Origin: Mobula hypostoma
Lineage: Eukaryota
Direction of reading: 5' to 3'
NCBI RefSeq assembly: GCF_963921235.1
Contig: NC_086108.1
Span: 15,934,001 to 15,998,000, forward strand
DNA: 64,000 nucleotides
The notes beneath the pieces are model-generated. The model was not told where the DNA came from. It did no database searches and worked only from the letters and a program-made list of their open reading frames with translations. Of the stretch, positions 50,471 through 53,400 are shown piece after piece; position 1 is the stretch's first letter, and every line of letters starts with the position of its first letter. The position numbers and the translations under genes were made by a program.

Positions 50471-53400
50471 GGGTGCCCAGAGAACCCAGGTGGGAAGGGA
50501 CATTACCCAGTGATAACAAGGGAGGCAGAAAAGGAACCCATTGTTCAGATTATGTAAGAAGGGCAATTGAGACCCATGATGATAGACACTGGAGCCATGT
50601 ATACCTGTGTACAGCCATAGTATGCTCTTCACTTTCCCATGTCAGGAAAATTTATTTAGACTGTAGGGTTCTCGGGGAAAACACAGTTAACACAATATAC
50701 AGCTCCAGTATGGTTGGGGATGGGCAGTAAAAGAGTAGTTCTGCCAGTATTAGTGTCCAAAGGAACCCCGATTAATTTGCTAGGCAGAGATGCACTATTA
50801 AAACTAGAATTAATATTAGAATGCACTAGAAATGGGTTGAGTGTGGAAAGAGCGAATACTCAGTTACTAGTGCTGGAAATCAAGAAAGCTAATGTTTTCT
50901 GGATAGGAGACATAGAAGATCAGATCTGGGAAACCTGGGAAAAATGGAAAAAGGGCATGCAGGCCATATTGCCCAAGGCGGAAGCGCCTAAGTCTGAGTT
51001 ACATTGCACAGTAATTTATGACGAGACTCAGAGTAAGGAGTTAGAGGAGAGATGACACGAGGGGCCATGTACCCAGCAGCACCTAAGAGGAGAAGCTATA
51101 ATAATTGGAAAGCAAGGGGCAGCCCTACAAGTCAGGTTGAATACCTTTTTGGAGAAATGGTATAGAATACCAGAGGCTGTGCCCCACATAACGTTGCTGG
51201 TGAATGAAGGATACCAGTCTAGAGACCTAGGACCCTTAGTAAAACGCGCTGGAACCGTAATGGTTTGGAGGAAAATTATGCAGGAGGTATGGGCATCGGG
51301 AGACAACAACTACATTAAAATATTGGTAGATATAGATATGACAGGAACTATAAAGGAAGTCGAAGTAATTCCTCAGCTGCACATGTCACTATTGGAAAAG
51401 GAGAAAGGTCAGGGAAAAGATAACAGGCTGGATAGGTTACCATCTATTCTGTGGTCGCAACATGACACGGACGTAGGGAGAATAAAAACGGCAAGTCCGG
51501 TAGAAATAAAACTGAAAAAGGGAGCAGTTCCACCTTGGAGACCACAATACCCTCTAAGACCAGAAGCAGAGGAGGGAATAGTGCCCACGATACAGGGGTT
51601 GCTCGAAGCAGGTGTACTTAAGATGATAGATAGTCCGTGTAATACTCCGCTGTTGCCCGTCTTAAAAGCGGACGAATCCAAATGGAGACTGGTACATGAT
51701 TTACGAGCAGTAAATGAGGTAGTGGAGGACTGGCCAGCTGTAGTCCCCAACCCACACACGGCTTTGACTAACGTTCCTCCAGAATCAAGCTATTTTTCAG
51801 TGATTGATTTGTGTTCAGCTTTCTTCAGCATTCCCCTGGCCGATCAGTGTCAGTATTTATTTGCATTTACATACAGAGGTAACAAATATACCTATACAAG
51901 AATGCCGCAAGGATTTAAGCACTCGCCGCACATTTTTAATCAAGTATTAAACGCAGACTTAGAGGGTATACAATTGGAAAGTATTGTTAATTTGCTCCGA
52001 AAGTGAGGAGCAGTGTGAACAGGAGACCGTAACACTTTTAGAAAGACTGGCGTATGAAGGACATAAGGTATCCAAAAAGAAGTTGCAATTCTGTAAGCAA
52101 CAGGTAGAATACCTAGGCAGGGTAATCTCCAAGGGAATGAAGGCGATAGCGCCGAGTCAAATTGAGGCAATAGCTAAAGTTCCTAAACCCCAGACAGTAA
52201 AGCAGATGATGACGTTTTTAGGATTAACAGGATACAGTTCAGATTGGATTGGGGAATATGCTGAAATTGTAATGCCATTAAGGAAAATAATGAAGGAGGC
52301 AGAAATAGCGTTTAATACTATTAAACAGGAATTGCAGTCAGCCCCAGCGTTAGCTTTGCCTGACTATGAGAAGGACTTTCATTTGTATGTATCCAACTGG
52401 CAGGAAGGCTATGTCGCAGCGGTTCTAACACAAGAGACAGGCACATAAAAAAGGAAACAATGTAATAACTAAGGGAAATCAAGCTGCAGACGAAGCAGCC
52501 CGGAAAGCATCTGGATGTATGTCGGCCTTCATTGCGCCCCAGGTAAGTTTGGAGCCGGAACCTATGGTAGAGGACCTGGTTGAAATACAAGGTAAGGCAA
52601 CTTTGGCAGAGCAGACAATGTGGAGACGAAGGGGGGCCAAGCAGAGCCCAGACGGCCTGTGGAGCACGGAGGACGGTTTTGACTATCCTGATTTCAGAAG
52701 CGCATGGGATGGATCATTGTGCAAGGGGGGATGTAATAAGGAAAATAAAAAAGGACGGTTTTTGGTTGCCTTATTTACAGGCTTCAGTAGTCCATGTGCT
52801 GTCGCAGTGCAAGGTATGTGCACAGAATAATGTTCGGAAAGGAATTACGGCCCCAATAGGTCATATACCCGTGCCCGAAGGGCCATTTAAACGTTTAGTG
52901 TTTGACTACGTAGACATGATAAGGACAGTAAGAGGGAAAGGATACATGTTAGTAGTAACTGACAGATTCAGTAGATGGGTAGAAGCGGTACCCTCGAAAG
53001 ATCAGGGGGCAGGAACAGTGGTAAAATTCCTCACAAACGAAGTGATCCCAAGATTCGGAATACCTACAGAAGTCAGCTCAGACAATGGTTCAGCATTTAT
53101 CCAAAAAGTGGTCAAATTAGTATTGCAAGCACTAAGAATAAAGCAGAGGTTTGGATGCGTGTATCACCCTCAGTCGCAGGGCATGGTGAAAAGAATTAAC
53201 GGGACTCCAAAAACCAAACTGAATAAAATTTGTGTGGGTACTAACTGGATTGACGCGCTGCCGTTAGCGTTAATGGGTTACCGCCTGCAAACTAATCGAG
53301 TGAGGTGTCTAACACCGCATGAAATGCTAACCGGAAGGCCCATGCCAGTGCCCCAGTGGAGAGGACCATACAAAGGGCCTAGCTTGGAACAATTGGAAGT

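Follow-up and report, generated by a model that had tools for sequence, protein, structure and literature searches.

A provirus with an additional domain in Pol

We analyzed a window of 64,000 nucleotides from the ray Mobula hypostoma (NCBI RefSeq assembly GCF_963921235.1, contig NC_086108.1, positions 15,934,001 to 15,998,000 of the forward strand), which contains an endogenous retrovirus (ERV) with an additional domain, predicted to be a 2H phosphoesterase, in its Pol region. The element has a pair of long terminal repeats (LTRs), a CTCA target-site duplication on both flanks, a primer site, and the gene order gag-pro-pol-env, with env supplied by other genomic copies (Table 1). The LTRs differ by 9 mismatches over 438 bp, and the reverse transcriptase (RT) and integrase are both borne out by Pfam matches.

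The pol frame reads, in order, protease DTGA (50585-50596) and LLGRD (50777-50791), the additional domain, and RT QYPL (51545-51556); an initial annotation of the DNA, made from the sequence alone, was therefore right to place an extra in-frame domain between protease and RT. It had put the size at about 150 amino acids, whereas the folded unit in the predicted model is slightly larger, at ∼164 residues. The two HxT motifs, HCTV and HITL, lie 61 codons apart from His to His, and an in-frame TGA splits them, both as originally described. Hydrophobic-HxT/S-hydrophobic pairs spaced by 55 to 70 codons occur only twice in the whole window, and both involve this domain, so the pair is more than a chance occurrence.

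This copy of the provirus is dead. The single stop that the annotation reported in the domain is real, but decay had been understated: the protease has three further stops, the frame is shifted past ∼52000, and, compared with eight other copies that cover the same places, stretches are absent from gag (∼0.2 kb), RT/RNase H (∼0.75 kb), and env (∼1.35 kb, near 53855). At the env position, four of those eight copies have an open reading frame (ORF) with furin and CX6CC motifs, and one of the two such ORFs that were scanned matched TLV_coat (E = 1.3e-13); the family is therefore an env-bearing retrovirus. We infer a class I, epsilon-like placement from the RT, for which Moloney murine leukemia virus (MMLV) provides the nearest solved structure, the MLVIN_C domain of the integrase, and the in-frame amber codon after gag, rather than from a tree; the walleye viruses are among the fold neighbors of the additional domain. 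By analogy with class I retroviruses, gag probably ended naturally at TAG 50468, through which translation would continue into pol.

Table 1. Features of the provirus and of the neighboring host gene (window positions)
Feature	Position	Strand	Remarks
Host RNase L gene, six coding exons free of internal stops	18580..37466	-	Context, outside the provirus
5' LTR, 438 bp	47317..47754	+	Target-site copy CTCA just before (47313-47316)
Primer-binding-site-like sequence	47759..47776	+	Begins TGG, four bases past the 5' LTR
gag, broken over several frames, start approximate	48500..50470	+	CCHC zinc knuckle near end
Protease, three in-frame stops (50555, 50618, 50657)	50525..50830	+	
Predicted CNPase-like 2H phosphoesterase domain in Pol, protease-RT interval	50876..51367	+	One in-frame stop, 51053-51055
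First HxT motif, HCTV	51002..51013	+	Aromatic five positions past His, as in CNPase
Second HxT motif, HITL	51185..51196	+	
Predicted helix, model residues 115-125, register of CNPase helix α-7	51218..51250	+	Gly 15 residues past second His
Reverse transcriptase, frameshifted	51434..52460	+	∼0.75 kb absent near 52450 compared with other copies
Integrase (rve, MLVIN_C)	52571..53674	+	Pfam
3' LTR, 438 bp	54279..54716	+	Followed by CTCA

Conservation of the domain

A search of the genome for the domain gave 127 matches out of 150 scored (233 candidates), some of them halves of one copy. Both HxT/S motifs are kept in 25 of the 30 best copies, and 13 of the 30 have a stop within the domain. These 30 were grouped by identity to the window copy (22 and 8) and compared pairwise by the Nei-Gojobori method; net dN/dS between the groups came to 0.16 (domain), 0.09 (protease), and 0.05 (RT), rough values without intervals. 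Such ratios indicate that the domain is under purifying selection.

Beyond this genome, 173 proteins (50%-cluster representatives) match the domain at E ≤ 0.001, many of them with flanking protease or RT motifs, and the nearest named protein, from Hypanus sabinus, is 70 to 72% identical. In an alignment of 76 homologs, picked by coverage and moderate length, both motifs are kept in 67 of the 74 sequences that span both sites, at identities of mostly 20 to 40%. The best-conserved columns are H43, T45, P103, H104, L107, and G119, that is, the catalytic His and Thr residues and their neighbors. Conservation of the HxT motifs, by which the initial annotation had proposed to judge its domain, was thus found both among the copies and among the homologs.

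Predicted fold

The model adopts a two-lobed 2H fold, which together with the two HxT/S motifs places the domain in the 2H superfamily, as had been proposed. Its nearest structural neighbor is CNPase, in agreement with the CNPase-like motif context noted at the outset; CNPase and the fungal RNA-kinase entry 6u05, which we take to be the kinase-cyclic phosphodiesterase of the tRNA ligase Trl1, are much closer to it than are the AKAP7-type viral phosphodiesterases (AKAP7, NS2, VP3), and Acb1-type structures score far under CNPase.

An excerpt of a structural account of CNPase describes helix α-7 as unique to that enzyme among known 2H enzymes, and as blocking the side that receives 2',5'-linked substrates in viral and eukaryotic phosphodiesterases (PMC5283653). 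In our model a helix begins 11 residues past the second His, as judged by register and DSSP. At the second His+15, 68 of 74 homologs have Gly, as does the CNPase exon of the host itself; at the first His+5, 63 of 72 homologs share an aromatic residue with host CNPase, whereas the three AKAP7-family motif exons compared lack one there. The position of the CNPase-specific helix thus appears to be filled, and by this register the side that would accept 2',5'-oligoadenylate (2-5A) would be blocked.

Several observations weigh against a CNPase-like enzyme. Identity between the domain and CNPase is only 11 to 15%. The Pfam CNPase family (PF05881) has no match on the window copy and matches 1 of the 76 homologs (E = 0.011); the best Pfam match on the window copy is instead Acb1 (E = 0.018), below the cut-off. 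The His-to-His spacing of 61 (mostly 61 to 63 in the family) compares with 79 in mouse CNPase, so the loops differ. CNPase R307 is replaced mostly by V/A, and V321 by K/R in 63 of 76 homologs, which could alter specificity. Blockage of the 2-5A side would follow from the register of the modeled helix, and a shared fold shows no function. A genome search with CNPase gave only the host CNP exons; by its predicted fold the domain is of the CNPase type, yet it is not classed as a CNP orthologue. The host CNP exons are present twice, ∼180 kb apart (G000:C91:33.78 Mb and 33.96 Mb, L049-L052); the last exon translates identically in the two sets and the exon order in the first looks rearranged, which reflects either duplication or an assembly artefact.

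Host range and the OAS-RNase L pathway

From the 150 listed homologs, 30 were selected on score and length and their hosts looked up. All 14 clusters that could be named are teleost (seadragon, smelt, pipefish, Danio, cichlids, catfish, perch, plaice, shad, and Denticeps), and both motifs are kept in every one of the 14 representatives. OAS-RNase L is described, in an excerpt of a published survey, as lost in the ancestor of ray-finned fish and present in cartilaginous fish (PMC10400998). The domain is thus maintained where 2-5A signaling is reported to be absent, which argues against 2-5A as the substrate of the family; a second use of the domain in rays may be compatible with the teleost pattern.

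The ray itself has an RNase L gene, as the annotation had supposed of the host. Its coding exons, from 37434 to 18580, span the Mobula protein in full (812 residues), and the first shares 96% identity with the protein of Mobula birostris. Four runs, drawn from two studies and presumed to be RNA, gave contigs that cover exactly 35799-37466 and extend on both sides; this interval is flanked by AG/GT, as expected of a spliced exon. Since the contigs extend past the first coding exon, an upstream exon exists. The 5' LTR starts 9.85 kb upstream of RNase L, on the opposite strand, and the provirus may lie within RNase L intron 1. On a separate contig, about three OAS-like genes are clustered, as seen from their OAS1_C-coding exons (G000:C78:31.04-31.17 Mb, L033-L040). 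These genes confirm that the host has the pathway; they are not evidence on the substrate of the enzyme. Degenerate OAS1_C matches with stops were also seen at G000:C59:15.9-16.07 Mb.

Proposed function and alternatives

We favor, with a probability of roughly 0.6, a CNPase-type 2',3'-cyclic phosphodiesterase that is made with Gag-Pol, borne by the particle, and turns cyclic phosphate ends into a 2'-phosphate and a 3'-OH. A compact CNPase-type 2H phosphoesterase would have been captured long ago by a class I (epsilon-like) retrovirus lineage of fish, carried within Gag-Pol between protease and RT, made with Pol by read-through, and packaged into the particle. There it would act as CNPase does, hydrolyzing 2',3'-cyclic phosphates to leave a 2'-phosphate and a free 3'-OH. 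Its targets would most likely be RNA 3' ends produced by metal-independent host ribonucleases, whether on the genome RNA or on the primer tRNA, or else 2',3'-cyclic nucleotides in free form. Any benefit to the virus would thus come from handling RNA-cleavage products, not from destroying the 2-5A signal.

The initial annotation had instead proposed a 2-5A-degrading antagonist of RNase L, that is, a 2',5'-phosphodiesterase that prevents RNase L activation. This is improbable: although the host has the pathway, the fold is nearer to CNPase, the α-7 position appears filled, and the motifs are kept in teleosts reported to lack the pathway. Slightly less doubtful, but still improbable, is a particle-borne phosphodiesterase acting on 2'3'-cGAMP or similar cyclic dinucleotides (cGAS-type signals), which would blunt STING sensing of viral DNA. 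The Acb1 match might hint at such an enzyme, but it falls below the cut-off and recurs in 1 of the 76 homologs; the Acb1-type structures score poorly, and a helix of the CNPase type narrows the site, according to the excerpt on that enzyme (PMC5283653). Broader than either is the idea that a CNPase-derived domain has been co-opted to antagonize immunity by cleaving a nucleotide second messenger, 2'3'-cGAMP across fish and perhaps 2-5A in rays and sharks. We regard it as unlikely, if less so than the narrower proposals; were it true, a retrovirus would encode a virion-borne messenger-degrading enzyme, captured independently of the AKAP7-derived viral phosphodiesterases.

Two further readings were weighed. 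Host CNP is known to bind Gag and to inhibit retroviral assembly, and the domain could act chiefly as a binding module or decoy in competition with it: human CNP binds the matrix (MA) region of HIV-1 Gag and inhibits particle formation, as stated in an excerpt of PMC7471995, and the domain is a CNPase look-alike. Conservation is, however, strongest at the catalytic His and Thr residues and their neighbors, which points to catalysis, and surface identity to CNPase is ∼12%; we consider a decoy very improbable. That the domain is a passenger, without any role for the virus, would fit the constraint, weaker than in protease and RT, and the fact that most retroviruses lack the domain, but a dN/dS far below 1 between subfamilies and retention of both motifs in highly divergent homologs largely refute this reading, and we give it hardly any weight. 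Probability beyond the cyclic phosphodiesterase and these alternatives is left to other substrates. Were the enzyme to repair RNA ends in aid of reverse transcription, or to cleave cGAMP, it would represent a new retroviral accessory mechanism.

Other features of the provirus and the window

The provirus is inserted in a very high-copy repeat (window 45900-47316 and beyond 54720), presumably a remnant of a Tigger/pogo-type transposon. At 47316, loose read ends are similar in sequence to what follows the 3' LTR, which is the empty form in other copies. The primer-binding-site-like sequence is, we presume, akin to the complement of the 3' end of tRNA-Ser. Among the other copies, L064 (G000:C1:239.63 Mb) has an unrelated insert of ∼3 kb with minus-strand ORFs in pol, and L065 has a 999-codon ORF that continues from the integrase region. 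Remnants of long interspersed nuclear elements (LINEs), numerous CR1-like ones and a single L1-like one, occur in 566-16170, 28400-30200, 40500-45750, and 55000-60200 of the window; some have long open frames, and such remnants are ordinary for a genome of this kind.

Comparison with known systems

The earlier remark that 2H domains had been noted in fish retroviruses was correct. Excerpts of two papers state that epsilon-like ERVs of fish sometimes encode CNPase (PMC4977317, citing Basta 2009) and list 2H domains for fish retroviruses and walleye dermal sarcoma virus (WDSV) (PMC9503650, citing Mazumder 2002); our literature searches found no functional test of such a domain. Fish class I retroviruses and ERVs carry the same kind of domain, and teleost database homologs share the order protease-2H-RT; those hosts are teleosts, whereas the host here is a ray with OAS-RNase L. 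In WDSV and walleye epidermal hyperplasia virus 1 (WEHV1) the match lies in Env rather than in Pol. The corresponding BFVD entries, Q9WHI8 and A4GTG3 (Env polyproteins of WEHV1 and WDSV), share the fold and represent a second placement in fish retroviruses.

Compared with the catalytic domain of vertebrate CNPase and fish RICH (PF05881; PDB 2xmi, 1woj, and 2i3e), the retroviral domain is ∼45 residues shorter and is part of a polyprotein. Entry 6u05 belongs to a kinase-ligase repair enzyme, whereas the provirus has no such partner domains. The AKAP7-derived viral 2',5'-phosphodiesterases (NS2 of mouse hepatitis virus [MHV], NS4b of Middle East respiratory syndrome [MERS] virus and HKU5, and the C-terminal domain of rotavirus VP3) share the 2H fold, the two HxT/S motifs, and the character of a viral accessory enzyme; their 2-5A side is open and they lack α-7, whereas the model of the ray domain has a helix at that register.

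We conclude that the ray domain is of a known kind, to which the window copy adds one more instance only. The kind itself is a host-derived enzyme, under purifying selection, in Pol of retroviruses of both teleost and cartilaginous fish, for which our analysis favors 2',3'-cyclic phosphate chemistry; a natural contrast for its role is available between hosts that have OAS-RNase L and hosts that lack it.
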